This document shows, in pieces, positions 5,699-60,496 of a stretch of DNA of 64,000 nucleotides. Numbering within the stretch: the stretch's first letter is position 1; each line of letters starts with the position of its first letter. The notes under the pieces are model-generated. The model worked only from the letters and a program-made list of their open reading frames with translations, had not been told where the DNA came from and did no database searches. The DNA comes from Asaia bogorensis (GTDB taxonomy: Bacteria > Pseudomonadota > Alphaproteobacteria > CACIAM-22H2): assembly GCA_945892765.1 (NCBI GenBank), contig CAMDDQ010000001.1, positions 40,486-104,485 on the forward strand. Reading direction: 5' to 3'. The translations under genes were made by a program, and so were the position numbers.

Positions 5699-7402
5699 CT
5701 AATGCGGCGCCGCCGTTTGGCCAACCCGCGCCGCGCCGATGGTTCGCGGACGCATCGGTCCCATGGCCGGGGTGTGGAAGACGTGGCAGGCCACGCAGGT
5801 CGAAGGCACCAGCGCGGTCACGTCTTCACCGCCATGGCACCCACGGCAATTGGCGATGCCCGGTAGCAGGACGTCGGAACTGGCAACCGATTTGGGGGCG
5901 GCGTGGCAATCGACGCAGCCGGTGTTCTTGTGTTTGCTGTGATCGAATTTGCCCTTGGGCATCCAGGTCGTCGCCACCAGCACCGGCTTGACCCGGAAAT
6001 TGGGTCTCTCGTCGAGCCTGGTCGTCCGTTCGACGAAGTGGCAGCTCCCGCATATGCTCTTGCCGTAAACGATCTCGATGGTCGCATCGGCACGGCTGCG
6101 CGCCCAGGCCAGCGCTTCGGCGCGCGCCGCTTCCTCTAGCGGCGAGCCGGGACGGCGGCGCACGACGGCCGGCGCTTCGGGATCCTCGAAGCCGCCTTCG
6201 AGGGCGACGCGGCCGTAGAAATCGTTGAGAACATTGGCGACTTCGTCCGGTTTGCCATGCGGCACTTCGCGGTCGAGCGCGCGGGCCTCGAACTTCAATT
6301 TGTGGCAATCGCGGCAATCGGTCTCCATGTCCACCGCGCGCATGCCCACGCCGCCGGTCTCCGGCCGGTGGCAATCATTGCAGACCATTTTCTGCAACCC
6401 GGTGGGGCCCCGCACGCCGGCGTCCACCAAATGTTTGTCGTGCGGGAAGATCAGGTTGGAATTCTCCTTCAGCGCGGGATCGCCGACCGGCAGCCGCACC
6501 AATGTCCGGGTCGCCGGGTCGGTCACCACCGACGGCCGAAATTCGGGGTGATCGCGGCCGAAATCGCTGACATTGATCAGCTTGGTCGTAGGCACCATCG
6601 TGGTCAGCCGCACATGGCAGTCGTCGCACAAGGCCTGCGCCGTCTGGATCGCCGGCTGCCGGCCTTGATGTTCCTTGTGGCAAGACGCGCACCGGGTTTC
6701 TTCCAGGGCCGGCAGACGCACCGTCTTCACGTCGGCGTGGTGGGCGATGTCGTTGTGACAGGTTAGGCAGGCCTGGTCCTGGACCATGATGAACGGCCGC
6801 TCGTGGCAGGTTGTGCAATCAGTCGCGAAATATTTGTGCACACCGGAGATTTCGCCGGATTCCCATGACTTGTCCGCCGCGATCGGCATCGCGGTCATGC
6901 TCTTGTGAAGGTCGGGGATGAAGAAGGCGGCGACCGGAAGGATAAGAAAGAGCAACAGCACGGTGGCAAAGGCGGCCCAAGACAACACACGTTTGCTGAT
7001 CGCGGCATCACCCAAGCGGGCGTGGCTGCGTTGTGTCAGTTCAACGAGATCGTCGCCGAGCGGCTGCACCAGTTCGACGGTAACAGCGACGCCATAGCCG
7101 GGCGGCGCTTCCACGATTTCGATCTTGTAAGGACCGACGGCAATCGAGTCGCCTGGCTGGACGCGGCCGGAGTTGGCGGCGGCTCCGTTGATGGAGAGAT
7201 CGTTGGTGCCCACCGCGGAGACGTAGGACTGGCCGTCGCGCACATGCAGTTCGGCGTGGTCGAGCCCGATCCGCGGGTCGGGTAGATAGACTTCGTTCTT
7301 GGTGCCGCGGCCGATGCGAATGAATTCCACTGTGGCGTCTTGGTCGCGCCGGGAAACGCCACGATTGCCGCGCCGAGTCAGATAGCCGACCTGGACAAGC
7401 AC
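5699..7402 (-). CDS. FHA-domain / single-TM / decahaem cytochrome c fusion protein
   Basis: N-terminal FHA signature (TVEFIRIGRGTKNEVYLPDPRIGLDHAELHV), one TM (VLSWAAFATVLLLFLILPVAAFFIP), then ten CxxCH motifs (CTTCH, CLTCH, CASCH, CDDCH, CNDCH, CRDCH, CGSCH, CVDCH, CRGCH, CVACH). Confidence 0.8.
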   Translation of the reverse strand: MLVQVGYLTRRGNRGVSRRDQDATVEFIRIGRGTKNEVYLPDPRIGLDHAELHVRDGQSYVSAVGTNDLSINGAAANSGRVQPGDSIAVGPYKIEIVEAPPGYGVAVTVELVQPLGDDLVELTQRSHARLGDAAISKRVLSWAAFATVLLLFLILPVAAFFIPDLHKSMTAMPIAADKSWESGEISGVHKYFATDCTTCHERPFIMVQDQACLTCHNDIAHHADVKTVRLPALEETRCASCHKEHQGRQPAIQTAQALCDDCHVRLTTMVPTTKLINVSDFGRDHPEFRPSVVTDPATRTLVRLPVGDPALKENSNLIFPHDKHLVDAGVRGPTGLQKMVCNDCHRPETGGVGMRAVDMETDCRDCHKLKFEARALDREVPHGKPDEVANVLNDFYGRVALEGGFEDPEAPAVVRRRPGSPLEEAARAEALAWARSRADATIEIVYGKSICGSCHFVERTTRLDERPNFRVKPVLVATTWMPKGKFDHSKHKNTGCVDCHAAPKSVASSDVLLPGIANCRGCHGGEDVTALVPSTCVACHVFHTPAMGPMRPRTIGAARVGQTAAPH

Positions 7403-8280: not shown

Positions 8281-10680
8281 TTAGAGACCCCGGTTAGAAA
8301 GCGAGAAGAACTCGTCCGGGCTAACACGAATGGCGGCGCCGGTCGGACAGGCCCGCACGCAGGACGGTCCGCCTTCGATGCCTTTGCACATGTCGCATTT
8401 CACCGCCATCTTGCGTTTGTTGGGGTCCTTTTTCTTGCCGTGGGTGGCTTCCCAGTCCTCGCCGGGTCCATGGCCCAGCCCAAACAACATCCAAGCCAGC
8501 AAACCCGGCTTGGCCGGCGGCTCCGCCGACATGTGGATGACGTGATAGGGACAGTTGCGCTCGCAATTGCCGCAGCCAATGCATTTTTCGTCGATGAACA
8601 CCTCGCCATTCGGCGAACGATGGATGGCGTCGGCCGGGCAGTCGGACATGCAGTGCGGATGTTCACAATGCCGGCACGACGTTGGCACATGGATCGAGGC
8701 ATAGGTCGGCCCAGCCTCGCGATCGAGCCGCGACACGCCGTGATGGGTCTCGGCGCAGGCCTTTTCGCAATTGTCGCACCGCACGCACAGCGATTCGTCG
8801 ATCAGCAGAACGTCAGTTGCCTCGCCCAACCCTTGATCGAGCAGGAACTGCATCAGGTTCGAGTGGTCGGGGCGGCCTTCCATGCGGACGTTTTCGACGA
8901 GCCGCGCTTGGAACCGAGCCTCGACCTCTACGCGCAACTCCGGCGAGCACTCGAGCAGGCCGCGAAAGGCGCCGCCGTCGATCTTTATGGCCTCCGTCGC
9001 CACCGCCGCCCGCACCGTGGCGGTGCGCCGGCTCTTGGTCAGCAGCGCCATTTCGCCGACATAGTGGCCAGCCGGAACATACGACAAAACCACGTCGCGG
9101 CCGCCCAGGCTGCGCGACACGGTCACCGACCCGCTGCGGATCAGATAGACGTTGTCGCCGACATCACCCTCCTTGATCAGCACGTCGCCCGCACTGAAGG
9201 ACTGGATGGTGGCCGTCCGCACGACATCGACGAGGTCGCGCTTGGAAACCTGCGGCGCCAGATGGGTCTGAACCTGGCGGATCATGGCGGTCTCGTCGAG
9301 AACACGTTTGGCCGCGGCGATCGAGCGAGTCAGCTTGATGACCTGCCTGCGCGGCGTCTCGATCAACACGCAATCGGCGCCCGCCACGACCGTCGCCGTG
9401 CGGCGGCGGCCGGAAATCAAACCCATCTCGCCGAAGAATTCGCCGGTCTTCAGCGTCACCTTGATCGCCGGGTTTTCGGCGCTGACCTGGACATCGACCG
9501 ACCCCGACAGGATCGAATAGAAGCTGTTGGAGTAATCGTTGCGCTTGAAAACGGTCTCGCCCTGCTTGGGCACATGGACGTCGCTGTCGAGCAGGAATTC
9601 TCGAAGCTGCAGCTTGGTCAGCGAGGAGAACATCGGCACGCGCTGTTGCACGCCTTCCAGGAACTGCGAGACCGTCACCCCTTGTAGGCCGGTGAGTTTT
9701 GCCTCAAGCAACGGCTCGTCGGCCGGCTTCACCTCATTCCCCAGGATGTACTCGATTACCTCATAGCCCTGGTTCATGCAGTGTTTGATTAGGGGATAAC
9801 CGGCCAGCGCGCCGATGATGTAAAGCCCCTTCACGTTCGATTCGTAGCTGTCGCTGACCCCCGGAACCGAGGCCGGATCGGCGTTGGGGAACACGATGCC
9901 GCAGGCTTCGACGAATTTGCGCGGCGGCAGGGCGCCAATACGAGCGATGACCCGGTGGCACTTGACCACCGCCTCACCCTCCGGGGTTTTCAGAAAAATG
10001 GCGCTGGGATCGGTCTCGACCTTAATGACCTTGGTGTTGAAATAACACTGGATGCGGCCGTCCTTGATGGCCGATTCGATCAGTGCGACGTTGCCCGCCT
10101 TGGCGCGGGCGAAATCGCCCATGACGTTGACGACGATGACCTCGTTCTGGGCGGCCAGCGCGATGGCGTTTTCGAGCCCGGCATCACCGGCGCCGATCAC
10201 AACGATGGTTTCGTCTTTGTATTCTTCTGGATCGTCGAGCTGGTACTGGACGTTGGGGCCGGTTTCGCCGGGTACGCCTAGGGTGCGGATATTGCCCTGC
10301 AATCCAATGGCGAGCACAACGGCATCGGCGGTGAGCGTTTGTTTGTTGGCGAGCGTGATCGTGAAGATCGCGCCGTCCTTCTTGATGCCCGCGACATCGG
10401 CGTTTTGGCGCAGGTTGAATTTCAACTCGCCGGTGCTTTTGTCCCAGGAACCGAGGATGGTTTCGCGGGCGCCTTCCTTGAATTGAAGATCGCTGCGCAG
10501 GGGCAGGACCTCCGGCGTCGCCATGACGTGTTTTTTCTTCTGATACTTGTAGATCGTATCGGAAAGATGGGTGGTGCGTTCGAGCAGGACATAAGACGCG
10601 CCGCGCTTGGCGGCACGCCCCGCCGCGCTTAATCCCGCCGGGCCCGATCCGACAATCGCGATCGCATAGTGTTCGGCCAT
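8281..10680 (-). CDS. NAD(P)/FAD pyridine-nucleotide-disulfide oxidoreductase fused to two cNMP-binding domains and multi-cluster 4Fe-4S ferredoxin domains
   Basis: GSGPAGLSAAG and VVIGAGDAGLENA Rossmann motifs; two CAP-type cNMP-binding segments (FGEMGLISGRRRTATVVA, VGEMALLTKSRRTATVRA); Cys clusters CVRCDNCEKAC, CRHCEHPHCMSDCP, CIGCGNCERNCP, CDMC...CVRACP. Confidence 0.8.
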   Translation of the reverse strand: MAEHYAIAIVGSGPAGLSAAGRAAKRGASYVLLERTTHLSDTIYKYQKKKHVMATPEVLPLRSDLQFKEGARETILGSWDKSTGELKFNLRQNADVAGIKKDGAIFTITLANKQTLTADAVVLAIGLQGNIRTLGVPGETGPNVQYQLDDPEEYKDETIVVIGAGDAGLENAIALAAQNEVIVVNVMGDFARAKAGNVALIESAIKDGRIQCYFNTKVIKVETDPSAIFLKTPEGEAVVKCHRVIARIGALPPRKFVEACGIVFPNADPASVPGVSDSYESNVKGLYIIGALAGYPLIKHCMNQGYEVIEYILGNEVKPADEPLLEAKLTGLQGVTVSQFLEGVQQRVPMFSSLTKLQLREFLLDSDVHVPKQGETVFKRNDYSNSFYSILSGSVDVQVSAENPAIKVTLKTGEFFGEMGLISGRRRTATVVAGADCVLIETPRRQVIKLTRSIAAAKRVLDETAMIRQVQTHLAPQVSKRDLVDVVRTATIQSFSAGDVLIKEGDVGDNVYLIRSGSVTVSRSLGGRDVVLSYVPAGHYVGEMALLTKSRRTATVRAAVATEAIKIDGGAFRGLLECSPELRVEVEARFQARLVENVRMEGRPDHSNLMQFLLDQGLGEATDVLLIDESLCVRCDNCEKACAETHHGVSRLDREAGPTYASIHVPTSCRHCEHPHCMSDCPADAIHRSPNGEVFIDEKCIGCGNCERNCPYHVIHMSAEPPAKPGLLAWMLFGLGHGPGEDWEATHGKKKDPNKRKMAVKCDMCKGIEGGPSCVRACPTGAAIRVSPDEFFSLSNRGL

Positions 10681-18258: not shown

Positions 18259-19460
18259 CACCCTGGCTTTTTGTCGTTGGCGTCGGCGAGGACGGGCTGG
18301 ATGGCCTGCCATCGTCCCATCGCGCGCTGATCGATTCCGCGGAGGTACTGGTCGGCGGCGAACGCCTGCTCGCAATGGTTCCCGCCGGCAAGGCCGAACG
18401 CATCACCTGGTCCAGGCCGTTTGCCGATTCATTTCCCGCCATCGCCGCCCAGCGCGGGCGCATGGTCGTCGCACTCGCCTCTGGCGATCCGCTGTGGTTC
18501 GGCGCCGGCGCCTCCCTGCTCGACCGGTTCACGATCGAGGACATGACGATCCTGCCCACGCCCGGCGCCTTCAGCCTGGCGGCGGCGCGCCTGGGCTGGC
18601 CGCTCGCGGGCGTGGAGACGATCAGCCTCGCGGCGCGGCCGCTCGCGCAGCTCAACCTTTTTCTCGCGCCCGGAATCCGTATCCTGGCGCTTTCACAGGA
18701 CGGGACAACACCCGCGCAAGCCGCCGTGCTGCTGCGCGAGGCGGGCTGGGGGCCCAGCCGATTCGTCCTGCTTGAAAGGCTCGGCGGCGAGCGGGAACGG
18801 ATTGTCGAGGGCACGGCGGAAAATTGGCTGGCCGAACGCTGCAACGTGCTCAACACCATCGCCATCGAGTGCCGCCCCGGCCCAGGGGCCAAGCCGCGCT
18901 CGCGCACCGCCGGTTTGCCCGACGAGGCCTTCAGCCATGACGGCCAGATCACCAAACAAGAGGTGCGCGCCGCGACTCTCGCCGCGCTGGCGCCGCTGCC
19001 GGGCGCGCTGCTTTGGGACATCGGCGCCGGCTGCGGCTCGATCGGCATCGAATGGTCGCGCGCCGCGCGCGACGCCCAGGCCATCGCCATCGAACGCGAT
19101 GAATCGCGGCGCGCGCTGATCGCCGCCAATGCCACCGGGCTCGGTGTACCCGGCCTGCGGATCGTGGCCGGCGCCGCGCCCGGCGCGCTCGCAAAATTAC
19201 CGGCGCCGGACGCCGTTTTCATCGGCGGCGGCATCGGCGATCCCGGCCTTGTCGAGGCGGCGTGGGCGGCGCTGAAGCCGCGCGGGCGGCTCGTCGCCAA
19301 TGCGGTGACGGTCGCGGGCGAAGCCGAGGTGGCGGCTGCGCGCGCGGCTTATGGCGGCGAGCTGGTGCGACTTCAGGTATCGCGCGCAGAGAAACTCGGC
19401 GATCATCTGGCATGGCGGCCATTGTTGCCGGTCACGCAATGGGCGGCCACGAAGGATTAA
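18255..19460 (+). CDS. cobL: precorrin-6Y C5,15-methyltransferase (decarboxylating) CobL (CbiE/CbiT fusion)
   Basis: An N-terminal tetrapyrrole-methylase fold plus a C-terminal SAM-MTase (LWDIGAGCGSIGIEW). The ATGA overlap with cobH indicates translational coupling. Confidence 0.85.
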   Translation: MTPWLFVVGVGEDGLDGLPSSHRALIDSAEVLVGGERLLAMVPAGKAERITWSRPFADSFPAIAAQRGRMVVALASGDPLWFGAGASLLDRFTIEDMTILPTPGAFSLAAARLGWPLAGVETISLAARPLAQLNLFLAPGIRILALSQDGTTPAQAAVLLREAGWGPSRFVLLERLGGERERIVEGTAENWLAERCNVLNTIAIECRPGPGAKPRSRTAGLPDEAFSHDGQITKQEVRAATLAALAPLPGALLWDIGAGCGSIGIEWSRAARDAQAIAIERDESRRALIAANATGLGVPGLRIVAGAAPGALAKLPAPDAVFIGGGIGDPGLVEAAWAALKPRGRLVANAVTVAGEAEVAAARAAYGGELVRLQVSRAEKLGDHLAWRPLLPVTQWAATKD

Positions 19461-20171
19461 GTGATGGGCATCGGCACCCTTTACGGTCTCGGTGTCGGGC
19501 CGGGCGATCCGGAGCTCCTCACGCTCAAGGCCCTGCGCGTGCTGCGCGCCTGCCCCGTAATCGCCTATCCCGCGCCGGAGGAAGGCAACAGCTTCGCGCG
19601 CTCCATCGTTGCGCCCCACCTGATCGGAAACCAGCGAGAGATCGAAATCCGCATGCCGTTGAGCGCCGAGCGATTCCCCGCGGCGGAGGCTTATGACCGC
19701 GGTGCCGCGGCCATCGCGGCCGAGCTGCGCGGGGGAAACGACGTGGCGGTGTTGTGTCAGGGCGACCCGTTTCTCTATGGCTCCTTCCAATATCTGTTCG
19801 CGCGCATGGCCGACGACTTCAGGGTCGTGGTTGTTCCGGGCGTTTCGTCGATTACCGCGTCGGCGGCGGCGCTGTGCATGTCATTGGCCGCCCGCGACGA
19901 TGTCGTCGCGATTGTCCCCGCGACGCTGCCGGAAGAGCGGCTGGAAGCGACCCTCGCCGCGGCCGATGCGGCGGCCATCCTCAAACTCGGGCGGCATTTC
20001 GCCAAGGTACGCACCGTGTTGGACCGGCTTGGCCTCGCCGATCGCGCCCGTTATATCGAACGCGCCACGTTGGACGGCCAGACCATGACACCGCTCGCCA
20101 GCGTCGATCCGGCGCGGGTTCCCTATTTCTCGATAATCCTCGTGCATAAACGCGGCGCGGCTTTCCGATGA
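19461..20171 (+). CDS. cobI: precorrin-2 C20-methyltransferase CobI/CbiL
   Basis: LYGLGVGPGDPELLTLKA motif. Confidence 0.85.
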   Translation: MMGIGTLYGLGVGPGDPELLTLKALRVLRACPVIAYPAPEEGNSFARSIVAPHLIGNQREIEIRMPLSAERFPAAEAYDRGAAAIAAELRGGNDVAVLCQGDPFLYGSFQYLFARMADDFRVVVVPGVSSITASAAALCMSLAARDDVVAIVPATLPEERLEATLAAADAAAILKLGRHFAKVRTVLDRLGLADRARYIERATLDGQTMTPLASVDPARVPYFSIILVHKRGAAFR

Positions 20172-21985
20172 ACCGGACACGTCTGCCCGCGGGCGCCGCG
20201 CTGGTCGCGCTGACCGCCGACGGCGCGCGGCTCGCCGCCCGAATAAAGCCCGCGCTGCCGGCCGCCCGCATCCATGGGCTCGGTGCGCGCATTGCCGTCG
20301 CCGACGAGATTTTCTCCGACACGGCCGAACACCTGCGCTTCCTCTTCGCCGCCGGCCGGCCGATCATCGGTATCTGCGCGGCCGGCATCCTGATCCGCGC
20401 GTTGGCGCCGCTGCTCGCCAACAAACGCGCGGAGCCGCCGGTAATCGCGGTCGCGGCCGATGGCGGCGCGGTTGTGCCGCTTCTCGGCGGGCATCGCGGC
20501 GCCAACCGGCTCGCCAAGGCCATCGCTGCCGCGCTCGGCGGCGTCGCTTCGATCACAACCGCCGGCGACACGGCCCTCGGCTTTGCCCTGGACGACCCGC
20601 CCGCGGGCTGGCGCGTCGCCAATGTAGAGGCCGCCAAGGCAATGACGGCCGCGCTTCTTGCGGGCGGTTCCGTGGCGCTGGCGGTGGAGGCCGGCGACGC
20701 CACCTGGCTGCGCGACTCGGGGATCGGCTTCGTGGAAACGGCGCCGCTCCGCGTGCTGGTAACCGACCGCGCCGTCATTGGCGATGCCTCGACGCTGGTC
20801 CTGCATCCGCCGGTTCTGGCGGTGGGTGTGGGCTGCGAGCGGGATGCCGACCCGGAGGAACTTGCCCGGTTGGTCGATGGCACCTTGGCCGCGCATGGGC
20901 TGTCGCCGCTTTCGGTCGCCTGTGTCGCCAGCATCGATTTGAAGGCCGACGAGCCGGCCGTGCAGTCCATGGCACGAAGACTGGGCGTGCCGGCCAGGTT
21001 CTACCCAGCCGCGCGGCTAGAGGACGAAAAGCCGCGCCTGCGCAACCCGTCCGACGTCGTGTTCCGCGAAACCGGCTGTCATGGCGTCGCCGAGGGTGCG
21101 GCGCTGGCCGCCGCTGGGAAGGAATCTGTCCTGATCGTGCCCAAGGTCAAATCGGCGCGCGCCACCGGCGCCGTCGCGCGCAGTCCCGCCGACATCGATG
21201 CGACCGCGGTTGGCCGCGGGCGCGGCCGTCTGGCAATAATCGGCATCGGTCCCGGCGCGGCCTCGTTGCGCACACCGGAGGCCTCCGCCGCCTTGGCCGA
21301 AGCGACCGATATCGTCGGCTATTCCCTCTATGTGGAACTGCTGGGGTCCGCCGCCATCGGCAAACGCATTCACGAACGGCCCTTGGGCGCCGAGACCGAA
21401 CGGACGCAACTCGCGCTCGACCTCGCTGCCGCGGGAGCCAACGTCGCCTTGATTTCATCCGGCGACGCCGGAATCTATGGCTTGGCGAGCCTCGCCTTTG
21501 AAATGCTCGACCGCGAGAACCGGGCCGATTGGAATCGCGCCGCCATCGCGGTTATTCCCGGGGTTTCCGCGCTACAGGCCGCGGCGGCAGCCGCCGGGGC
21601 CATCCTCGGCCATGATTTCGCGGCGATTTCGCTGTCCGACCTGCTGACGCCATGGCCCGATATCGAGCGACGGCTGCGGGCCGCGGCCGAGGGCGATTTC
21701 GTCGTTGCCCTCTACAATCCCGCCTCGGCGAAGCGGCAACGCGGGATCGGCGTGGCCCGCGACATCCTGCTGGCCCATCGCGCGCCCGACACGCCGGTCG
21801 TGTTGGCGCGCAATCTGGGCCGCGACGGCCAACGTGTCGACACCATCACCTTGGCGGAGCTCGGCCCCGACAAAGTCGACATGCTGACTATCGTATTGAT
21901 CGGCTCGACCCAATCGCGAAGATTGCGCCGCGGCCGGGAGGATTGGGTCTACACGCCGCGCGGTTACGAACGGAAATCGACGTAG
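20168..21985 (+). CDS. cbiG-cobJ: CbiG (cobalt-precorrin-5A hydrolase) fused to precorrin-3B C17-methyltransferase CobJ/CbiH
   Basis: N-terminal CbiG domains (...GIGCERDADPEEL...) and a C-terminal tetrapyrrole methylase (LAIIGIGPGAASLRTPEA...DVVFRETG). Confidence 0.85.
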   Translation: MNRTRLPAGAALVALTADGARLAARIKPALPAARIHGLGARIAVADEIFSDTAEHLRFLFAAGRPIIGICAAGILIRALAPLLANKRAEPPVIAVAADGGAVVPLLGGHRGANRLAKAIAAALGGVASITTAGDTALGFALDDPPAGWRVANVEAAKAMTAALLAGGSVALAVEAGDATWLRDSGIGFVETAPLRVLVTDRAVIGDASTLVLHPPVLAVGVGCERDADPEELARLVDGTLAAHGLSPLSVACVASIDLKADEPAVQSMARRLGVPARFYPAARLEDEKPRLRNPSDVVFRETGCHGVAEGAALAAAGKESVLIVPKVKSARATGAVARSPADIDATAVGRGRGRLAIIGIGPGAASLRTPEASAALAEATDIVGYSLYVELLGSAAIGKRIHERPLGAETERTQLALDLAAAGANVALISSGDAGIYGLASLAFEMLDRENRADWNRAAIAVIPGVSALQAAAAAAGAILGHDFAAISLSDLLTPWPDIERRLRAAAEGDFVVALYNPASAKRQRGIGVARDILLAHRAPDTPVVLARNLGRDGQRVDTITLAELGPDKVDMLTIVLIGSTQSRRLRRGREDWVYTPRGYERKST

Positions 21986-23759
21986 AAGGCCTCGATCTGG
22001 CCCTGGCGACCGCGCACCTCCACCAGGCCGATGGATGTGACGGGAAGATCGAGCTTTGACGCCTGCCGCGTGACCCCGCTCATCACGACCACGACATTGC
22101 CGGGCTTATCGATGGACTTGCCAAGCTGCTCCAGCCGGTTCGCGGTGTTCACCGTGTCGCCGACGATGGTGTAGTTGATGCGGCCGGGTGCGCCGATATT
22201 GCCGACGACCACGTCACCCGAATGCAGTCAGATGCGAATGCCCAAGGTCCCGCCCTCGCGCCCCATGGCCTCGGCGATGGCCAGTGCCGCGCGGCAGCCA
22301 CGGGCGGCATGGTCTTTCTGTTTCTCGGGCGCGCCCCAAAAGGCCATGACATCGTCGCCGATGAATTTGTCCACGGTGCCACTCTCGGCCTCGATGCAGG
22401 CGGTGATCAGCCCGAAATGTCGGTTGAGCAGCGGCGCGACCTCCGGCGCCGGGAGTTTTTCCGCCATCGTGGTGAACCCGGCGATGTCGGTGAACATCAC
22501 TGTGACGGTGCGTTCCTTCGACGGCATCGCACCCTTGGCCGCGTCCCATTCGCCATGGCCGACCAGTCGCTGCACCAGCTTCCTGGGGACATAGGTCTCG
22601 AACCAACGCAGCCCGACGACCATGGCGTTGAAGGCCTGGCCGGCGGCGTTCAGTTCCACGAACAGGGTACGGGGTAACCTTTCGACCGTATCGAGCGACA
22701 AATCGCTTACCCGCCTTGCGGCGATCGAAAGCCGGATCAGCGGCACGGTCAAATATCGGGAATAACCGTAAGCGACCAGCAACGAGACGAGCAGAACCGC
22801 GATCCCGGCGATCGCCGCCCAGCGCAGGCGTGTCAGTTCGTCGGTGATGTCGGTGGCCGCGAAATAGACTCCGACTTCCCAGGGCTTGTCGCTGTAACGG
22901 TCCAAGACGCGCGACAGCATGGCATATTGAATGCCCCCGGATTCGGCGAGCCGAATGCCGGTCTTTTCGATGAAGTCCCGGTCGAGCACGCCCAATTTCT
23001 GCGGGCGGTCAAAAGCCAGGAGAACCGGATCCCCGACCTCCGCGATCGTGGGCAGCAAATTCTCGCCGCGCGGCGGCCGGCGCGTCTGAAGAAGAGGATG
23101 GGCGAGGACCATGTGATGGTCGTAAAGAATGAAGGCCGTGCCTTTGAGGGTGCGCGCGGTGTCGTCGAGAATTTGCGAAAACTGGTCCACCTGGACGGTG
23201 CCACCAATAGCCCGACATAATTGCCGCCGATGCGAACCGGATAGCGAACATTGACCAGCACCTGATCGGCGGTTTCCGGCAGCACGATTTCGGCCCAATA
23301 CAGCCCCGTCCTGTCGCGCGCCGCGTCCATGGCGTTGCTGATGACCGGCATCTCCCGCACATCGATGACATCGAGAGCGACTCCATTCGGATGGCGAAGG
23401 GCCCGCAGCATCGAATTGTCGGTGCCGATGAGTACGAGCGAACGCACTTCGGGAGTCGCCGACAAGGCGCCGGCCTCGATCTGGCGGGCAAGGTGAATAA
23501 GCTGACTCTCCACTGGCCGCAGATATTGGTCGATCACGCTGACGATCTGCAGGCTCGCGGCTTCGGATTTGTCGCGCAGCAAGTCGATGGTATTGGTGCG
23601 GGCGCTCCAGAGGCCGAGCGCGAGGGCCGAAGCCACGGCAAGGAAGACGAGGCCGCCGAAGCCAAGCACCAATCCGGTGGCGATCTTGATCTCGGCCGAC
23701 GGGTGCGGCGCCTCGCCTTGTGCGGCCGGCGCGGCAATGGCGGGGGAGTGGCTTTTCAT
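21964..23759 (-). pseudogene. disrupted sensor adenylate/guanylate cyclase (dCache-like periplasmic domain, HAMP, class III cyclase)
   Basis: The reading frame switches near 23200-23215 (RIGGNYVGL in one frame, AIGGTVQVDQFSQILDD continuing in another). An in-frame TGA at 22228-22230 sits inside the catalytic domain (...GTLGIRI*LHSGDVVVGNIGAPGRINYTIVGDTVNTANRLE). Confidence 0.6.
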
Positions 23760-23784
23760 GACGGCACCAAGCTAAGAATACCGG

Positions 23785-24555
23785 ATGATCGTGCATTTCA
23801 TCGGCGCGGGGCCGGGTGCCGCAGACCTTATCACGGTGCGCGGCCTCAACCTCATCCGGCGCTGCCCCGTCATTCTTTATGCCGGATCGCTGGTCCCGGA
23901 GGCGGTGGTCGCGGAGGCCCCCCAAGGCGCCCGAATCGTCGATACCGCGCCGCTCCACCTGGATCAAATCGCGGAAGAGATGCGCGCCGCCCATGCCCGG
24001 AACGAGGACGTGGCGCGAATCCATTCCGGCGATCCCTCACTGTACGGCGCGATCGGGGAGCAGATGCGGCGGCTCGACGCTTTGGGTATCCCGTATGACG
24101 TGACGCCGGGCGTGCCGGCCTATGCGGCGGCGGCGGCGGCGCTGCGCGCCGAGTTGACCCTGCCTGGACTTAGCCAGACCGTGATCCTAACCCGCACCGC
24201 CGTGCGAGCCTCACCCATGCCCGAAGGGGAGTCGCTGTCCAGGCTTGGGGCCAGCGGGGCGACGCTCGCCATTCATCTGTCGATCAACAACCTCGCCGTC
24301 GTTCTTCGCGAATTGACACCTTTGTATGGCGGCGATTGCCCGGTCGCCGTCGTCCACCGTGCCTCGTGGCCGGACGAGGCGATCCTGCGCGGCACACTCG
24401 CCGACATCCGCGCCAAGGTGAAGGCGGCGGGGTTCACGCGCACGGCCATGATCCTGGTCGGCCGCGCCTTGGCGCCGGCCGGCTTCGACGACAGCCGGCT
24501 TTATGCCGCCGACCATCGCCATGTCTGCCGCAAAGCCGGAAACGATCAGGACTGA
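23785..24555 (+). CDS. cobM: precorrin-4 C11-methyltransferase CobM/CbiF
   Basis: [20 protein letters not shown]...[14 protein letters not shown]. Confidence 0.9.
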
Positions 24556-25310
24556 AGCCGCGCCATTATCCAGGCGAACGCCGCCGCGGGTGTGGCCACG
24601 GTTTCGGCGTGGTCCTTGGCCGGCCGCCGCAGAAGGATCACCGGGATGTGCGCCTCGCGCGCGGCGATCAGCTTCGCCGCGGTCGCGCCGCCCCCGCTGG
24701 CTTTGGTGATGACCACGTCGATGTGGTGGCGGGCGAGCAGGACCCGTTCGGATTCGAGCGTGAACGGCCCGCGGCCGAGAACAATTTCATAAGCGTTCAG
24801 TTGCAGACGCGCCTTGGGCGGATCGATCAGGCGCACCAGGAACCAGGTATCCGCGATCCCGGAAAACGCCGGCAGGACGCGGCTCCCGACGGTGAGGAAC
24901 ACCCGCCGGCCGAGCCCAGCCAACAACGAAGCCGCCGCGGCGGCATCCTCGACCTCGACCCAACGATCGCCGTCCTGACGCTCCCAAGCGGGGCGGGCGA
25001 GTCGCAACAGGGGCACGCCGGCGGCGGCGCAGGCGGCATCGGCATTGGCCGCGATCTCGGTGGCGAAGGGGTGGGTGGCGTCCACGACAAGCGCGACGTT
25101 CCGTTCGGCAAGAAAGGCGGCGAGGCCGTTCTTTCCCCCGAAACCGCCCCTGCGGACTTCCCCCGGCGGCAGATTTGGATGTTCGGTGCGGCCGGCGAGC
25201 GAGGTCACGACTTCGACTCCCGGCGGGAGCACCAGGCTCAGCATCTCCGCCACGGCCACGGCCTCCGCCGTGCCGCCCAGGATGAGCAGCCGGCGGCTAG
25301 GGCCCGGCAT
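24546..25310 (-). CDS. cobK: precorrin-6A reductase CobK/CbiJ
   Basis: Start at M37 of the ORF frame ([17 protein letters not shown]). CobK fold. Confidence 0.8.
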
Positions 25311-26412
25311 GGCCGAGCAAGACGCCGCCCCGATCGAAGACCGCCACGTCAACCGCGACGCCGCCGGCCAGCGTGGCCAGCGCGGTTTCGCGCGCACGGC
25401 GCGCGACCTGTTCGGCAAGACGTGGCCCCCAGGCCCCGGCGGCGGCCATGATCTGCCCCGCCGTCGTGGCGCCGGCCACCGCTTGCAGAGCCTCGTCCGG
25501 TGCTCCGATCTCGCGCAACAGGCTCATCAACGCGACGCTGTCCACGGATGAACGGCCGGAATGAAGGTCGAGGTGCCCGGCCGCGAGTTTCGACAATTTT
25601 CCGAAGCCGCCGGCGATTGTTAGCCGCGGCACCGGATGCAACCTCAGATATTTGAGAAGGCCCCCGGCGAAATCGCCCATATCGATCAGGGCAACCTCCG
25701 GCAATTCGTAGAGGCGTTGCACGGCCGCTTCCGAAGTCGATCCGGTGCAGGCCGCGATATGCGCCCGTCCGGCGGCGCGGGCGACATCGACGCCGCGCTG
25801 AACCGCATGAATCCAGGACGAACAGGAATAGGGAATGACAACGCCAGTCGTGCCGAGGATCGAAAGGCCGCCGACGATGCCCAGCCGCGCATTCATGGTT
25901 TTTTTCGCGAGTTCGGCCCCGCCGGGTATGGAGATGGTGACCATGACATCGCCGCTGCCGCCAAAGGCGCCCGCGATTTCTTCGATTGTCTGTCTAATCA
26001 TCACACGCGGCGTGGGATTGATTGCGGGTTCGCCCGGCGCCAGCGACAACCCGGGCAGGGTTACCGTGCCGACACCCTCCCCGGCCTTGAAAACGACGCC
26101 GCCGCCTTCCGCGCCTTGCGCGACCTCGACGACAATCAACGCGCCATGGGTGATGTCGGGATCGTCGCCGGCATCCTTGATAATGGCGGCGCGCGCCCAA
26201 TCGGCACCGAGTTCGCCGCGGGCGAGGGCGAAACTCGGTTTTTTGCCACGCGGCAGGGCAATCACGACCGGGTTTGGAAAGATTCCCGTTAGCAGCGCCT
26301 GATAAGCGGCCCGTGCGGCGGCCGTGGCGCAAGCGCCGGTGGTCCAGCCGCGGCGCAAATCGCGCCGGTCGGCCGGCCTGGTCGCCGATTCTTCGGGATC
26401 GACATCGGCCAC
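25297..26412 (-). CDS. cbiD: cobalt-precorrin-5B (C1)-methyltransferase CbiD
   Basis: LRRGWTTGACATAAARAA N-terminal signature of CbiD. Confidence 0.85.
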   Translation of the reverse strand: MADVDPEESATRPADRRDLRRGWTTGACATAAARAAYQALLTGIFPNPVVIALPRGKKPSFALARGELGADWARAAIIKDAGDDPDITHGALIVVEVAQGAEGGGVVFKAGEGVGTVTLPGLSLAPGEPAINPTPRVMIRQTIEEIAGAFGGSGDVMVTISIPGGAELAKKTMNARLGIVGGLSILGTTGVVIPYSCSSWIHAVQRGVDVARAAGRAHIAACTGSTSEAAVQRLYELPEVALIDMGDFAGGLLKYLRLHPVPRLTIAGGFGKLSKLAAGHLDLHSGRSSVDSVALMSLLREIGAPDEALQAVAGATTAGQIMAAAGAWGPRLAEQVARRARETALATLAGGVAVDVAVFDRGGVLLGHAGP

Positions 26413-26489
26413 GAAAAAATCCTCAAGGTTTTCCCGTTCATCAAAGCGGCTATCGATGGCTTATGGCAAGTCCCGTGCGCGGCGGCTCG

Positions 26490-27030
26490 CTATGTCATCG
26501 CGCCGATGCCATACAGCCAAGCCACGGCCACAGCCATGGACAGCAACGCGATCGGGATGCCCGCCCGGGCATGGTCGGCGAAACTCAGGCGAACACCCAC
26601 CGTTGCCGCTCGCTCCACCACGATCAGATTGGCGATGCTGCCGACCAGCAGAAAATTGCCGGCGAGCGTCGATAAAAGGGCCAGTCCGTGAGGCGCGCCT
26701 TTCGGCAATTCCGGCCACATCTCCAGCAGCATCACAACCGCGGGCACATTGCCGATCGTGTTGCTGAGGACCAGCGCCAACGGCGCCATCAAATGCAGGC
26801 GGTCTGGCAGCCAACCCTGCTCCGCCAGCATTCCCAGAAACGCGTTGGGCGGGCCTGTGGCGGCAAAGGCGTCATTGACGACGAACAAGGCGGCAAAAAG
26901 AACAAGAAGTGGCCAGTCGACGGTCACGAGCAGGTCGCGGCTGGCGAAGCGGCGGCTGAACAACATCGCTGAGGCAACCAAAAGCGCCGCACTTTCGCGC
27001 GGCAGCTCCGTCGCGAACAAGACGAGGAGG
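26490..27030 (-). CDS. membrane protein resembling the C-terminal half of an ArsB/NhaD-superfamily permease (possible gene remnant)
   Basis: Hydrophobic repeats (...LVLSNTIGNVPAVVMLLEM...LLSTLAGNFLLVGSIANLIVVE...). No ATG is available, TTG is the probable start, and only ~180 aa remain, about half a typical permease. Confidence 0.35.
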
Positions 27031-27081
27031 ACACCAACCCCCAGGCCGGCGCCCGGGATCGACGAAGCCCCGGCGAGAGTC

Positions 27082-29109
27082 TCAGGCGCCGCGCACCGCC
27101 ATGGGCTGCGGGGCGGCGGTCGCGGTCGCCGACACCTGGGACCCGGGCTGCACGCGTGGCGCCGCCGCCGGCTTGCGGGCCTGGGTAACACGCTCCTGCG
27201 CCGCCTCCAGGATCAGGCGCAGCAGGTCGGCGTAACGCAGCCCGGCATAACTCGCCATGATGTTGAGCTTGCCGTCCCAGCACCAGCCGGGATTGGGGTT
27301 GACCTCGAGCAGCTTGATCGCGCCTTCGGCATCGGCGCGGAAGTCGAATCGCGCATAGTCGCGACAACCCAGGCGCTCGAACAGCACGGTCGAGTAGTCG
27401 ACCAGGCGGCGCCGCACATCCTCGTCGATCGCCGCCGGCTTGTACTTGATCTGCGTCCAATAGGGCGATTCCGGCACCCATTTCGATTCATAAGAAAGAA
27501 TCTTGGGCAAATCGGCGTTGAGCCCGCTGAAATCGACCTCGAGCGTGGGCAGCACCTGATAGCTCAATCCGGGATTGCCGATGATGCCGATGCTGTATTC
27601 CGCGCCGGTGAGATATTCTTGCACCAGCACCGGGCGACCGGGCAATTCCTCGCGCAGCTTTTCCAGATAGGTGATCGCTTCTTCCGGCGTCCACACCACG
27701 GCGTCCTTGGTGATGCCTATGCTGCTGTCGCCGAAACAGGGCTTGATCAGCGCCGGAAAGATAGATGGCAGGTTCGCCGATTGGTCGTCCGGGTTGACAT
27801 AGGTTTCGGCCGGGACCGGGAGATCGAGCGATTCGGCGATCGAACGGACCAACGCCTTGTTGTAACAAAGGCCGAGGCAGCTCGCGCCGGCGCCGGTATA
27901 GGGCACGCCCAGCATTTCAAGCAGCGCCGGCACATGCGGCTCGAGGAAGGCGTCGTTGTTGAAGCCTTCGTCGCAGAGATTGAGCGCGAACTTGGGCGGG
28001 TTGGCGCGAAGCTGGCTGACCATCGCGGTGTGATTGTCGATGAAGTCGAATTTGTAACCGGGCAATTCGCCCAGGGCCTCGCGCAGGCGCTTGATAGTTT
28101 CGAAGTCTTCCTTATTGAACTGGCCGCCGCGCTTGACCATGTCGGGCAGGCGCGGATCACCCATGACAACGCTGACCTCCGGGTAAGCGATGCCGCGCAC
28201 CGCCGTGACCGCGACCTTGCGCGGCGCCTGCGCCGTCAGGAACATACGCGTGGCCATCATGCCCAGGTCTTGGTTGCGGCCGGATTCGGTGCCCACCCAA
28301 TCGTGGAACCGCAGCGATTCGAAACCGACTCGTTCCAGGAGCTCGCGGATGCGTTCACGTGAATAGAGGCGCTCGGCATAAAATTGATCGGCGATCACGC
28401 CGCGTTCGGCATGCACAACAACTTCGCGCGAAACCAGGCGTTGTTGATCGTTGGCGAGCGAACGTTCGCGGCAGACAAAGTGATTCTGGTCGATCCATTC
28501 CCAGGACCGCCGCTCGAAATGCGTCCGCAGCCAGTCGCCATCGGCAAGGTCCATGGCCAGCGTGCCGTTGGAGGCCAGCGCCCGTTTCACCGCCTCCAGC
28601 ACCGCCACGTCGTCTTCCTCGCGGTCGAAATAGCCGTAGGAATTGCCCATCAGCGTGACGCAGTGGAAGGAATTCTCCGGAACCCGAAATTTGCGGGCGT
28701 CGCCTTCATGGAAGGAGACGTTGAGGCCCAACTGCTTGGCGCGTTTGCGGGCGAGCCGGACCAGATAACGCGAGCGGTCGATGCCGGTGACGGCGTTGAA
28801 GCCCCGGCGCGCGAGTTCGATGACGTGGCGACCCTGGCCGCAGCAGAGATCGAGGATGCGGTCGTTCGGCTCCAGACCCGACGATTTGATCAGCGAATCG
28901 ATTTCGCGCCCGGTATTGGTGTCGTTTTCGACGACATCGCCATCGGTTTGGATGTAGAGCGAATTGAACAGCGTCCGCCACCAATCGGATGGCAGGTGGC
29001 GCTCGAGATCGGAAACCGGGCCAAGCGTTCTTACCGGTCCCTGCGGCTTGGGCGTACCGTTCCCATTGGGTTTATGGACGCCGTTGCCGTTGGACGACTT
29101 TTTCGCCAT
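27082..29109 (-). CDS. class I SAM-dependent methyltransferase fused to a D-Ala-D-Ala-ligase-like ATP-grasp domain
   Basis: MTase motif I ILDLCCGQGRHVIELARRG. C-terminal ATP-grasp segments (LVQEYLTGAEYSIGIIGNPG, DYARFDFRADAEGAIKLLEVNPNPGW). Start at M64 of the ORF frame (MAKKSSNG). Confidence 0.7.
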   Translation of the reverse strand: MAKKSSNGNGVHKPNGNGTPKPQGPVRTLGPVSDLERHLPSDWWRTLFNSLYIQTDGDVVENDTNTGREIDSLIKSSGLEPNDRILDLCCGQGRHVIELARRGFNAVTGIDRSRYLVRLARKRAKQLGLNVSFHEGDARKFRVPENSFHCVTLMGNSYGYFDREEDDVAVLEAVKRALASNGTLAMDLADGDWLRTHFERRSWEWIDQNHFVCRERSLANDQQRLVSREVVVHAERGVIADQFYAERLYSRERIRELLERVGFESLRFHDWVGTESGRNQDLGMMATRMFLTAQAPRKVAVTAVRGIAYPEVSVVMGDPRLPDMVKRGGQFNKEDFETIKRLREALGELPGYKFDFIDNHTAMVSQLRANPPKFALNLCDEGFNNDAFLEPHVPALLEMLGVPYTGAGASCLGLCYNKALVRSIAESLDLPVPAETYVNPDDQSANLPSIFPALIKPCFGDSSIGITKDAVVWTPEEAITYLEKLREELPGRPVLVQEYLTGAEYSIGIIGNPGLSYQVLPTLEVDFSGLNADLPKILSYESKWVPESPYWTQIKYKPAAIDEDVRRRLVDYSTVLFERLGCRDYARFDFRADAEGAIKLLEVNPNPGWCWDGKLNIMASYAGLRYADLLRLILEAAQERVTQARKPAAAPRVQPGSQVSATATAAPQPMAVRGA

Positions 29110-57007: not shown

Positions 57008-60000
57008 ATGAACGACAATCGAACCGCGATCGCCGGGACCCTCGCTCTCGCCCATGGCTTGTCTTTCCCCGATCTGTATGACCGCGACGGTCTTGCCAAG
57101 CTCGACGCCCAGTTTATCGCTTCCCTGCGTCAAGCCGATGGCGCGCTGTGTGAACTCCTTCTCAGCGGGCGCGCGGCCCCCCAGACCCTTTCCGCGAAAG
57201 ACGAGGGAAATCTTCTGATCGCGCTGGCCCCGCATCTCGATGCCTTCATCGTCGCGCTGTTCGGGATCGCCCAGGAAGCCACAGCACTTCGCCAGAGTCA
57301 TGCCCGGCTGAACCCGCTTTCCGAGGTCAAGCGGCTGTTCGTCCAACGCCGCGCGGTGAAGGACTTTGGCGCCGCGACCGCGATGGCCTTCGACGGTCCG
57401 GCGCTGACTTCCGCCTTGGAAAAGCGGATCGGCGGGAAGTTCACCGAACTCACCTTTGCCGAGGCCGTGGCCCAATGGCTGAACGATGAGGCCGCGAATG
57501 CCGAGGCGCTGGACCTCGCCGCGCGTTACGCTGCCTGGGCGGTGCACAGCGATGCCGGTCGCGGACGCCACGGCGCCGGCGTGTTGTTCAAGGTGCCGCG
57601 TAAAGTCGACCACGAACACCTGGTGCCGGTCGAAGCGACATCGGTGAACGGCGTGCCGGCGGTGGGTCTTGCCCCTGGGCATTGGCGTCACCGCGAAGGC
57701 TTCGCCCTGACGGACCCCGGCATGGACCTGACCCATGCCCTCGACCAGGCCAATTACTGCATCTGGTGCCACAATCAGGGCAAGGATTCCTGCTCGAAGG
57801 GCCTCACGGAGAAGTCCGGCGCCTTTCGCAAGAGCCCGCTGGGCGTGACGCTTGCCGGCTGCCCGCTCGAAGAAAAAATCTCGGAAATGCACGTGGCCAA
57901 GGCCGCGGGCGATGCAATCGGCGCCCTCGCAATCATCGCCGTCGACAACCCGCTGGCCGCGGCGACAGGGCACCGCATCTGCAACGACTGCATGAAATCC
58001 TGCATCTTTCAAAAGCAGGAGCCGGTCGACATTCCGCAGGCCGAGACCCGAACCCTGAAAGACGTCCTCGACCTGCCTTGGGGTTTCGAGATCTATTCGC
58101 TGCTGACGCGCTGGAACCCGCTCAATCTGCGCCGGCCCTTGCCGCTGCCGGCCAGCGGCCGGTCGGTGCTGGTTGTCGGTCTCGGGCCGGCGGGGTTTTC
58201 GCTGGCCCATCACCTGCTCAATGACGGGCACCATGTTGCGGCCATCGACGGGCTGAAAATCGAACCCCTGCCTGAATCGGTATCGGGGGTAAAGCCCAAT
58301 GGCGAACGTGTGTCCTTTGCCCCGATCCGGGACATCGCGTCGCTCAATGAATCCTTGGACGACCGCGTGATGGCGGGTTTCGGTGGCGTCGCCGAATACG
58401 GCATCACCGTGCGCTGGGACAAGAATTTCTTGAAAATCATCCGCCTAATGCTGGAGCGGCGCGCCGCTTTTGCGATGTTCGGCGGAATCCGCTTTGGCGG
58501 CACCGTCACCGTTGAATCCGCGTTCGCGATGGGGTTTGACCACATCGCCCTGTGCGCCGGCGCGGGGAAACCGACGGTCATCGACATTCCCAACCGTCTT
58601 GCCCGCGGCGTGCGCGCCGCCTCCGATTTCCTGATGGCCCTGCAGCTGACAGGCGCGGCCAAAGCCGCGTCCATCGCCAATCTGCAAATCCGCCTGCCGG
58701 TGGTCGTGGTGGGTGGCGGCCTGACCGCTATCGACACCGCGACCGAATCGATCGCCTATTACCCGCGGCAGGTCGAAAAATTCCTGTCGCGTTACGAAAT
58801 CTTGGCGGCGGAGCGGGGCGAGGCCACCTTGCGTCAGGGCTGGACCGAAGAAGATCGCGAAATCGGCGAAGAATTCATCCTTCACGCCCGCGCCCTGCGT
58901 GCCGAACGCGAAGCGGCAACGCGCGAAAGTCGGGCGGCGGCCTTTTTGCCCCTGCTCGAATCCTGGGGCGGCGTGACCATCGCCTATCGCCGGAAGCTGA
59001 TCGAGGCACCCAGCTACACCCTCAACCACGAAGAAGTTCACAAGGCGATGGAAGAAGGCGTGCGTTTCGCCGAAGGGCTGACCCCGGTCGCCATAGACAC
59101 CGATTCGCGCGGTTATGCCGCAGCCATGCGTTTCACCGGCGCCGACGGCGCCGAGGCGGTGCTTCCGGCTCGCTCGATCTTGGTCGCCGCGGGCACCCAA
59201 CCGAACACCGTGCTAGCGCGCGAGGACCCGGACCACTTGGAGCTCGACGGCCGTTTCTTCCGCGCCCTCGACGAGGCCGGAAACCCGGTGAAGCCGGAGC
59301 GCCTGGCCAAGCCCGGCGCGGTGCATGTGCTGACGCACCTCGCTCCCGATGGCCGCGCCGTCAGTTTCTTTGGCGATCTGCATCCTTCATTTTCGGGCAA
59401 TGTCGTCAAGGCCATGGGCGGCGCGAAGCAAGGCTACCCGCTGGTCAGCCGCATGTTGGGCCGGGTCGCGCCGCGCCGATCCGATCCGACGGCGCTTCTT
59501 GCCACGCTGAACGATGAGCTTCGTGCCCGCGTGCACGAAGTCGTGCGGCTGACGCCAAACATCGTCGAGGTCGTTGTGAAGGCGCCCGCCGCCGCCCGCG
59601 AATTCCGCCCCGGCCAGTTCTACCGCCTGCAGAACTACGAGACGCTGGCTTTGACCGTGGATGGCACGACGCTGGCCATGGAAGGCCTTGCTCTCACCGG
59701 CGCGTGGGTGGACCGGGCGAAGGGCTTGGTTTCCGTGATCGTCCTGGAGATGGGCGGCTCGTCCGATCTCTGCACCTGGCTGAAGCCGGGCGAACCCGTG
59801 GTGTTGATGGGCCCGACGGGAACGCCGACGGAGACGCCGGGCGGCGAGAGCGCGATTCTGGTGGGCGGCGGACTCGGCAATGCGGTGTTGTTCTCGATTG
59901 GGCAGGCGCTACGGTCGGCCGGGTCTCGCGTCGTTTATTTTGCTGGCTACAAACGCGGAATCGACCGCTACAAGGTGGAGCAGATCGAAGCGGCCGCCGA

Positions 60001-60496
60001 TATCGTGGTGTGGTGCTGCGACGAAGCCCCCGGATTTCAGCCGACGCGGACACAGGATCGCGCTTTTGTCGGCAATATCGTCGATGCCATGTTGGCCTAT
60101 ACGACGGGTCGCTTGGGGCCGGCGCAGATCCCGCTATCCGGCGCCCAGCGCATGATCGCCATTGGGTCCGACGGCATGATGGCGGCGGTGACACGCGCCC
60201 GTCATGGCGTGCTCGCCCCCCACCTCAAGCCCGGCCATATCGGCATCGCCTCCATCAACTCGCCGATGCAGTGCATGATGAAGGAAATCTGCGCCCAATG
60301 CCTGCAGCCGCACCGTGATCCCGTGACCGGCGAGGAGACCGTCGTCTTTTCGTGTTTCAACCAGGACCAGTTGATGGACGAGGTCGATTTCGCCGCGCTT
60401 CGTCAGCGCCTCGGCCAAAATAAGGTTCAGGAAAAGCTGACACGGGCCTGGATCGATCGCTGCCTGCGGCGGCTCAATCTGCGTAAGGCGGCCTGA
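57008..60496 (+). CDS. large multidomain flavoprotein with a GltD/NfnB-like FeS-FAD-NAD(P)H module and a PyrK/NfnA-like FNR module with a 2Fe-2S site
   Basis: Unknown ~270-aa N-domain; CIWCHNQGKDSC...GCP...CNDCMKSC 4Fe-4S motifs; VLVVGLGPAGFSLAHHL Rossmann; FNR-like RPGQFYRL...; C-terminal CMMKEICAQC...C cluster. Confidence 0.75.
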   Translation: MNDNRTAIAGTLALAHGLSFPDLYDRDGLAKLDAQFIASLRQADGALCELLLSGRAAPQTLSAKDEGNLLIALAPHLDAFIVALFGIAQEATALRQSHARLNPLSEVKRLFVQRRAVKDFGAATAMAFDGPALTSALEKRIGGKFTELTFAEAVAQWLNDEAANAEALDLAARYAAWAVHSDAGRGRHGAGVLFKVPRKVDHEHLVPVEATSVNGVPAVGLAPGHWRHREGFALTDPGMDLTHALDQANYCIWCHNQGKDSCSKGLTEKSGAFRKSPLGVTLAGCPLEEKISEMHVAKAAGDAIGALAIIAVDNPLAAATGHRICNDCMKSCIFQKQEPVDIPQAETRTLKDVLDLPWGFEIYSLLTRWNPLNLRRPLPLPASGRSVLVVGLGPAGFSLAHHLLNDGHHVAAIDGLKIEPLPESVSGVKPNGERVSFAPIRDIASLNESLDDRVMAGFGGVAEYGITVRWDKNFLKIIRLMLERRAAFAMFGGIRFGGTVTVESAFAMGFDHIALCAGAGKPTVIDIPNRLARGVRAASDFLMALQLTGAAKAASIANLQIRLPVVVVGGGLTAIDTATESIAYYPRQVEKFLSRYEILAAERGEATLRQGWTEEDREIGEEFILHARALRAEREAATRESRAAAFLPLLESWGGVTIAYRRKLIEAPSYTLNHEEVHKAMEEGVRFAEGLTPVAIDTDSRGYAAAMRFTGADGAEAVLPARSILVAAGTQPNTVLAREDPDHLELDGRFFRALDEAGNPVKPERLAKPGAVHVLTHLAPDGRAVSFFGDLHPSFSGNVVKAMGGAKQGYPLVSRMLGRVAPRRSDPTALLATLNDELRARVHEVVRLTPNIVEVVVKAPAAAREFRPGQFYRLQNYETLALTVDGTTLAMEGLALTGAWVDRAKGLVSVIVLEMGGSSDLCTWLKPGEPVVLMGPTGTPTETPGGESAILVGGGLGNAVLFSIGQALRSAGSRVVYFAGYKRGIDRYKVEQIEAAADIVVWCCDEAPGFQPTRTQDRAFVGNIVDAMLAYTTGRLGPAQIPLSGAQRMIAIGSDGMMAAVTRARHGVLAPHLKPGHIGIASINSPMQCMMKEICAQCLQPHRDPVTGEETVVFSCFNQDQLMDEVDFAALRQRLGQNKVQEKLTRAWIDRCLRRLNLRKAA

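Follow-up and report, generated by a model that had tools for sequence, protein, structure and literature searches.

Class III cyclases assemble their active sites at a homodimer interface, where one subunit provides two Asp residues and a Lys and the other provides a Thr, an Asn and an Arg, and the combination of Lys and Thr as substrate residues is the mark of the class IIIb adenylate cyclases. Among the solved members, OaPAC (5x4t), Spirulina CyaC (1wc0) and Pseudomonas CyaB (3r5g) share the metal Asp motifs FxDI and IGD, a Lys four residues before the second Asp, a Thr in the YTIxGD motif and an Nxx(x)R motif, all of which recur in the cyclase gene described here. This gene occupies positions 23759-21964 on the minus strand of a 64,000-nucleotide stretch of DNA (hereafter, the window), inside the cobalamin cluster of an uncultured freshwater alphaproteobacterium. 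While it has these motifs in common with OaPAC, CyaC and CyaB, it pairs them with putative dCache and HAMP domains instead of BLUF or the other sensor modules of those enzymes, and, unlike theirs, its open reading frame (ORF) is interrupted three times. We put at about 90% the probability that the gene once encoded a membrane-bound sensor adenylate cyclase and became a pseudogene only recently.

Closer in domain organization are the dCache–HAMP–cyclases of other alphaproteobacteria (P0002-P0120; for instance, from Oceanibacterium hippocampi, Arenibaculum, Azospirillum and Skermanella), which are proteins of ~615 residues with the same architecture and 38-63% identity over >90% of the length; judging by the source names, none of them has a studied ligand. 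Their ORFs are uninterrupted and, unlike the gene in the window, none of the 78 examined loci lies in a cobalamin cluster. A precedent for the loss of a class III cyclase is Rv1120c, which is a pseudogene in Mycobacterium tuberculosis and M. bovis and has an intact orthologue in M. avium (PMC2447327). There, too, a class III cyclase is dead in one species and intact in a close relative, albeit in another phylum and with another domain architecture. Dead cyclase genes that have an intact counterpart in a sister species are thus already known, and the window locus is a further instance; in contrast to Rv1120c, however, the window cyclase was lost independently in two sister species and sits inside a biosynthetic operon.

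A protein search recovered an intact, uninterrupted orthologue of 613 residues (P0001), 93-95% identical to the window gene (~95% at the amino acid level and 93% at the DNA level). In the metagenome-assembled genome (MAG) 'Rhodospirillales bacterium CH-Jul18-20' (L001), as well as on three more metagenome contigs, it is found between cobM and cbiG-cobJ in identical synteny. Nucleotide alignment, an indel list and coordinate mapping against this orthologue defined three lesions in the window gene, which spans 1796 nt (21964..23759, minus strand) versus 1842 nt in the intact orthologue. Nearest to the start codon is a 45-bp in-frame deletion, at the junction of which (23466..23474, minus strand) a single GCCGGCGCC copy is left, where the orthologues have two near-identical copies, the direct repeats GCCGG(C/T)(G/A)CC, flanking 36 bp. 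It costs the protein 15 residues, AGTITFETGDLGKYF, a segment present in all aligned homologues that, in the AlphaFold2 model of P0001, makes up loop 96-104 together with the N-terminal half of helix 105-116, just before the first Cache beta strand; its removal is predicted to damage the sensor. The repeat-bounded loss bears what we infer to be the signature of a slipped-strand deletion. The second lesion is a 1-bp deletion at 23199..23200 (minus strand), inside a dCache beta strand, where one C is missing (GCC ACC to GC ACC), and the third is an in-frame TGA at 22228..22230 (minus strand) replacing Gly526, which is encoded by GGC in both sister species. The change from GGC to TGA at codon 526 amounts to two substitutions in one codon, and no exception to the Gly occurs among 22 aligned homologues or among the outgroup homologues (116 of 116).

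A preliminary description of this DNA, made from its letters only, had pointed to the TGA at a normally-Gly position, which the invariance of Gly526 bears out, and had counted two independent lesions. Both of these are present, yet the count is three, as the 45-bp in-frame deletion had been missed. The frameshift, which it put at ~23210, is likewise real, although the break lies ~12 nt further downstream, at the edge of the range (23200-23215) proposed for re-examination: the alignment to intact orthologues that it had called for located the indel as one missing C between 23200 and 23199.

From the ATG at 23759, the first frame (frame A; 23200..23759, minus strand) encodes the N-terminus with the first transmembrane helix, followed by about half of the predicted periplasmic dCache domain (MKSHSPAIAAP...GNYVGLLVA), homology to P0001 and P0005 reaching to its end, and then runs into unrelated residues. 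The homologous protein resumes in a second frame (frame B; TVQVDQFSQILDD...; 22231..23199, minus strand), which covers the remaining dCache, the second transmembrane helix, the predicted HAMP domain and, with FTDI and KFIGD, the N-terminal half of the catalytic domain, as far as ...TLGIRI and the TGA at 22230-22228. Past the TGA, the same frame continues (LHSGDVVVGNIGAPGRINYTIVGDTVNTANRLE...) through the second half of the catalytic domain (21964..22227, minus strand), with NYTIVGDTVNTANRLE and the active-site Thr, Asn and Arg, until the TAA at 21966-21964. The TGA parts the Asp/Asp/Lys half of the active site from the Thr/Asn/Arg half, and, owing to the frameshift, the N-terminal frame lacks all that should follow residue 187. 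Because the TGA and the upstream frameshift leave no uninterrupted reading frame through the complete catalytic domain, the locus is a pseudogene of the class III family and not a functional member of it. On the established enzymology of class III cyclases, none of the fragments would be expected to be an active cyclase, and cyclic AMP (cAMP) would no longer be made.

The same lesions recur in other assemblies. The cobM protein of the window was located on four further contigs, three of them from ENA assemblies and one from a Logan assembly of a public run. Two of the ENA contigs span the whole cyclase, namely, ERZ27280223 (L009; window positions 18785-27126), which differs from the window by one single-nucleotide polymorphism, at 20391, and ERZ27280297 (L010; 18785-26110), which is identical. 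The third, ERZ27280310 (L011; 23302-27440), is also identical and includes, of the lesions, the 45-bp junction only, while the Logan contig of ERR5863107 (L012; 22149-25941), produced by a different assembler and identical to the window up to 25880, contains all three lesion sites. Each of the four is identical to the window across the cyclase sequence that it covers. Since the two-substitution stop, the repeat-bounded 45-bp deletion and the 1-bp deletion recur with a different assembler, they do not reflect a systematic error, and the earlier view of a decaying gene as opposed to a sequencing slip holds, given three lesions, the same sequence in other assemblies and an intact orthologue at the same position. 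We also considered L012, at 99.6% identity, as a slightly divergent strain and rejected this, as 16 of its 16 mismatches fall in the final 60 nt aligned, near the contig end; it contributes no within-population polymorphism in the cyclase. An exact-sequence lookup of the 308-residue frame-A ORF gave no record.

Were it intact, the protein would be a membrane-bound sensor adenylate cyclase of the class IIIb type, with a periplasmic dCache domain set between two transmembrane helices, the first of them N-terminal, and a HAMP domain leading to the catalytic domain. The repaired translation matches the Pfam family Guanylate_cyc (PF00211) with 89.6 bits against a cut-off of 21.9, and the best PDB alignments of the catalytic domain are with the class III adenylate cyclases OaPAC, CyaC, CyaB and bPAC (E = 1e-22), and with the first three it shares FxDI, KFIGD and YTIxGDxVNxAxRLE; the cyclase family assignment of the preliminary description is thereby upheld. 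Codons for all active-site motifs are present in the window (FTDI, DKFIGD, NYTIVGD and NTANR). By analogy with class III enzymology, we take FTDI and KFIGD to hold the two metal-binding Asp and the substrate Lys, and NYTIVGDTVNTANRLE to hold the Thr, Asn and Arg. Matches of the repaired translation to dCache_1 (26.9 bits, cut-off 45) and HAMP (19.8 bits, cut-off 25) are weak and sub-threshold, and precomputed hits to PF02743 and/or PF00672 exist in most homologues. The AlphaFold2 model of P0001 shows a long helix and two alpha/beta modules, along with a transmembrane helix and a linker of helical structure, and its periplasmic part has a predicted local distance difference test score of ~90.

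In a third species, 'Rhodospirillaceae bacterium Baikal-deep-G46', also represented by Logan and ENA contigs from other runs, the cyclase lies at the same place and retains the full 1842 nt. It has none of the three lesions of the window; instead, codon 370 is changed from TCG to TAG in each of the four contigs examined at the DNA level (L005-L008), and, at the protein level, two further ENA contigs yield the same truncated product of 369 residues. The Baikal cyclase further carries two substitutions, W309R and T439A, at sites with at least 96% conservation across the family. Because the intact L001 groups with the window in the topology derived from synonymous divergence (dS), ((window, L001), L005), the inactivations in the window and in the Baikal species are independent. 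A literature search on the Baikal MAG lineage returned nothing useful. As a separate observation, all three species of the clade, the one with the intact gene among them, are without ~8 residues of the catalytic domain, just before the IRIG strand (columns 538-545 of alignment A1), that every other family member has, and they share five departures from residues with at least 90% conservation across the family (L209F, P250L, S380T, A503G and N518G).

Pairwise ratios of non-synonymous to synonymous divergence (dN/dS) of the cyclase range from 0.11 to 0.14 and are indistinguishable from those of cobI, cbiG-cobJ, cobM and cbiD. Assigned to branches, the changes number 23 non-synonymous and 37 synonymous for the window, 8 and 25 for the intact sister L001, and 23 and 53 for the Baikal species (L005); lineage-specific hits at conserved columns number two in the window and none in the intact sister. 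Counted as 21 non-synonymous to 37 synonymous changes, the window branch departs strongly from the ratio of 2.9:1 expected under neutrality (p = 1e-9), which, together with the neighbour-like dN/dS, indicates purifying selection through most of the history of the gene and a recent death.

Several considerations weigh against the gene being dead. The non-synonymous to synonymous ratio on the window branch (0.57-0.62) exceeds that of the intact sister (0.32), yet this excess is not significant (p = 0.35), and Fisher tests on the non-synonymous and synonymous counts (p = 0.31-0.35) give no significant sign of relaxed selection; sequence evolution by itself cannot prove a loss of function. The fragments could, in principle, still be translated, with gene callers predicting pieces of 320 and 82 residues. 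Moreover, the lesion-bearing assemblies may sample one clonal population, and it is for that population that the lesions are shown to be real.

The sequence of events that best accommodates these data begins with the antisense insertion of the cyclase between cobJ and cobM, in the ancestor from which a small clade of freshwater, uncultured Rhodospirillales descends. The species of the window then acquired a 45-bp deletion, presumably by slippage between 9-bp direct repeats, a 1-bp deletion and a two-step change of GGC to TGA. Full-length protein would no longer be made, and a product ending at the TGA would be devoid of the Thr/Asn/Arg half of the active site. Presumably, the cyclase had become dispensable in this niche.

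As noted in the preliminary description, the cyclase is encoded on the opposite strand between cbiG-cobJ and cobM, 25 bp from the start of the latter. The cbiG-cobJ fusion gene (20168..21985, plus strand) is convergent with the cyclase and overlaps it by 22 nt at the 3′ ends, whereas cobM (23785..24555, plus strand; precorrin-4 C11-methyltransferase type, TP_methylase) is divergent from it, with the 25-bp spacer between the two start codons (23760..23784) nearly invariant in three species. The ATG of cobM at 23785 is backed by the N-terminus M[IT]VHFIGAGPG common to relatives. The cobalamin cluster as a whole extends from cobO (11723) to a cobB/cobQ-type amidase gene (~32569). Within the species with the intact cyclase, one contig (L002, 4680-4706) has AAG changed to TAG (K288*) at codon 288, at the CbiG/CobJ junction, which splits the fusion into a called CbiG of 287 residues and a CobJ of 308 residues and is the sole difference from L001 in 1818 nt.

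Distant Rhodospirillales cob clusters, found via the CbiG-CobJ protein (~64% identity), reveal an arrangement without the cyclase. In two of them (L094 and L095), cbiX-cobH-cobL-cobI-cbiG/cobJ-cobM follow one another on one strand and the cobJ stop overlaps the cobM start by 4 nt; this co-directional arrangement and overlap identify cobM as the last gene of a cbiX-to-cobM operon. Among 80 genome loci with cyclase homologues, cob genes lie within 10 kb only in the two sister species and in none of the 78 more distant homologue loci (up to 63% identity). Given that cobJ and cobM are contiguous in relatives, the cyclase represents a clade-specific antisense insertion of ~1.8 kb that split cobM off its operon. 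In a more distant relative (L093, 8903-10338), the same cobJ-cobM junction holds a PDDEXK_3 gene and an insertion sequence transposase of the rve family, and the junction may tolerate insertions repeatedly.

The preliminary description held that the promoter of cobM must lie within the pseudogene. This was over-stated: an internal promoter is possible, but transcription could just as well run on from the upstream operon through the antisense cyclase into cobM. In the species with the intact cyclase, the two genes are arranged in the same way, down to the nearly invariant 25-bp spacer, and the question of the cobM promoter is therefore unrelated to the pseudogene status. In a promoter consensus scan over 21700-24100, we found one site, ~560 nt upstream of cobM, where 0.6 would be expected, and promoter and terminator counts were no better than in shuffled sequence. 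A search of 21500-24300 against Rfam at E <= 1 detected no riboswitch or other RNA family, and hence no cobalamin riboswitch before cobM; over the whole window (1-64000), at the gathering threshold, neither a cobalamin riboswitch nor any other family was detected.

These observations bear on the alternative that survives best, according to which the coding function is dead while the DNA is kept for the sake of cobM, either as its promoter or as a transcribed spacer for operon read-through. In its favour, cobM starts only 25 bp from the cyclase ATG, leaving a spacer too short for a promoter, and, as cobM is translationally coupled to cobJ in relatives, a new expression route was needed after the insertion; furthermore, the full insert of ~1.8 kb is present in all three species, in contrast to the deletions of ~0.7-0.8 kb in the nearby CitMHS gene. 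On the other hand, the single consensus site is not a convincing promoter, the cyclase shows no unusual conservation over its first 160 nt, and, the decay being recent, the absence of large deletions may reflect too little time. We regard such retention as possible, with the odds clearly against it.

The CitMHS transporter gene, situated between cbiD and a methyltransferase/ATP-grasp gene, offers a parallel to the cyclase. In the window, it persists as a 5′-truncated remnant (26487-27053, minus strand), from which ~666 bp, including the start codon, are gone in comparison with the intact sister gene in CH-Jul18-20 (409 residues; L001, 6047-7276), and in the Baikal species (L005, 6838-7270), it suffered a different deletion of ~790 bp and a frameshift. 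The cyclase and the CitMHS gene, two of the non-cob genes within this cobalamin cluster, are thus alike in that both are intact in one species and both were hit by different, independent lesions in two sister species, and this parallel decay is the one remarkable feature of an otherwise ordinary pseudogene. It could be argued that the two formed one accessory sensing and uptake module tied to the cob cluster, responding, for instance, to a Cache-sensed carboxylate or metal-citrate signal, which was shed in parallel, with the DNA of the dead cyclase kept only because cobM expression depends on it. We consider this doubtful at best: no linkage of the cyclase and CitMHS was found in distant homologues, which makes it simpler to assume that accessory genes are being lost in general.

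Programmed recoding fares still worse as an alternative to recent pseudogenization. In this scenario, ribosomal frameshifting at 23199/23200, combined with read-through or recoding of the UGA, would restore the full-length protein, and it is a fact that the downstream frames remain open and cyclase-like and that UGA is the leakiest stop codon. However, both sister species are plain and uninterrupted at both sites, which implies that there is no conserved recoding signal; GTG GCA CCG, as read from the sequence, is without a slippery X XXY YYZ heptamer; no Rfam family was found at E <= 1 within 21500-24300; the recoded position is an invariant Gly, not a Cys or selenocysteine; and the 15-residue deletion would stay unrepaired. 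Recoding is accordingly most improbable. The remaining alternative, in which the organism has an intact cyclase and errors of sequencing or assembly produced the stop and the frameshift, can appeal to one base missing from a short C run being a common type of error and to the probable origin of the window in a metagenome assembly, but is effectively refuted by the identity of L009 and L010 over the whole gene, of L012 at all three sites and of L011 at the 45-bp junction, by a stop that requires two substitutions in one codon next to a clean repeat-bounded deletion, and by the ~21 kb aligned to two sister species, in which the 1-bp deletion is the sole uncompensated indel in coding sequence of a length not divisible by three, the remaining 1-bp indels forming one compensating, intergenic pair.

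Three other genes in the window merit mention. The product of 8281-10680 (minus strand; 799 residues) unites a pyridine-nucleotide-disulphide oxidoreductase domain with two cyclic nucleotide (cNMP)-binding domains and a 4Fe-4S dicluster domain, which is an unusual combination; by virtue of these cNMP-binding domains, the organism retains a cyclic-nucleotide effector ~11 kb from the dead cyclase. In the 567-residue product of 5699-7402 (minus strand), an FHA domain at the N-terminus precedes multihaem cytochrome c domains (Cytochrome_C7/c3, with paired CXXCH motifs); it is odd to see a phosphopeptide-binding module joined to a multihaem cytochrome. Finally, an ORF of 1162 residues (57008-60496, plus strand) has one Pfam domain, Pyr_redox_2 (residues 386-749), between large flanks without a family match.

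Nothing here is surprising to the specialist. The locus should be annotated as one pseudogene and not, as gene callers have it, as two or three cyclase or hypothetical genes, and it should not be counted towards the cAMP-signalling capacity of the organism. It further indicates that cobJ-cobM, a translationally coupled pair, tolerated an antisense insertion at its junction. With three kinds of lesion in one gene, it provides a small, clean case of early gene decay in free-living freshwater bacteria, in which a second species lost the same gene independently and a neighbouring gene is decaying in parallel.

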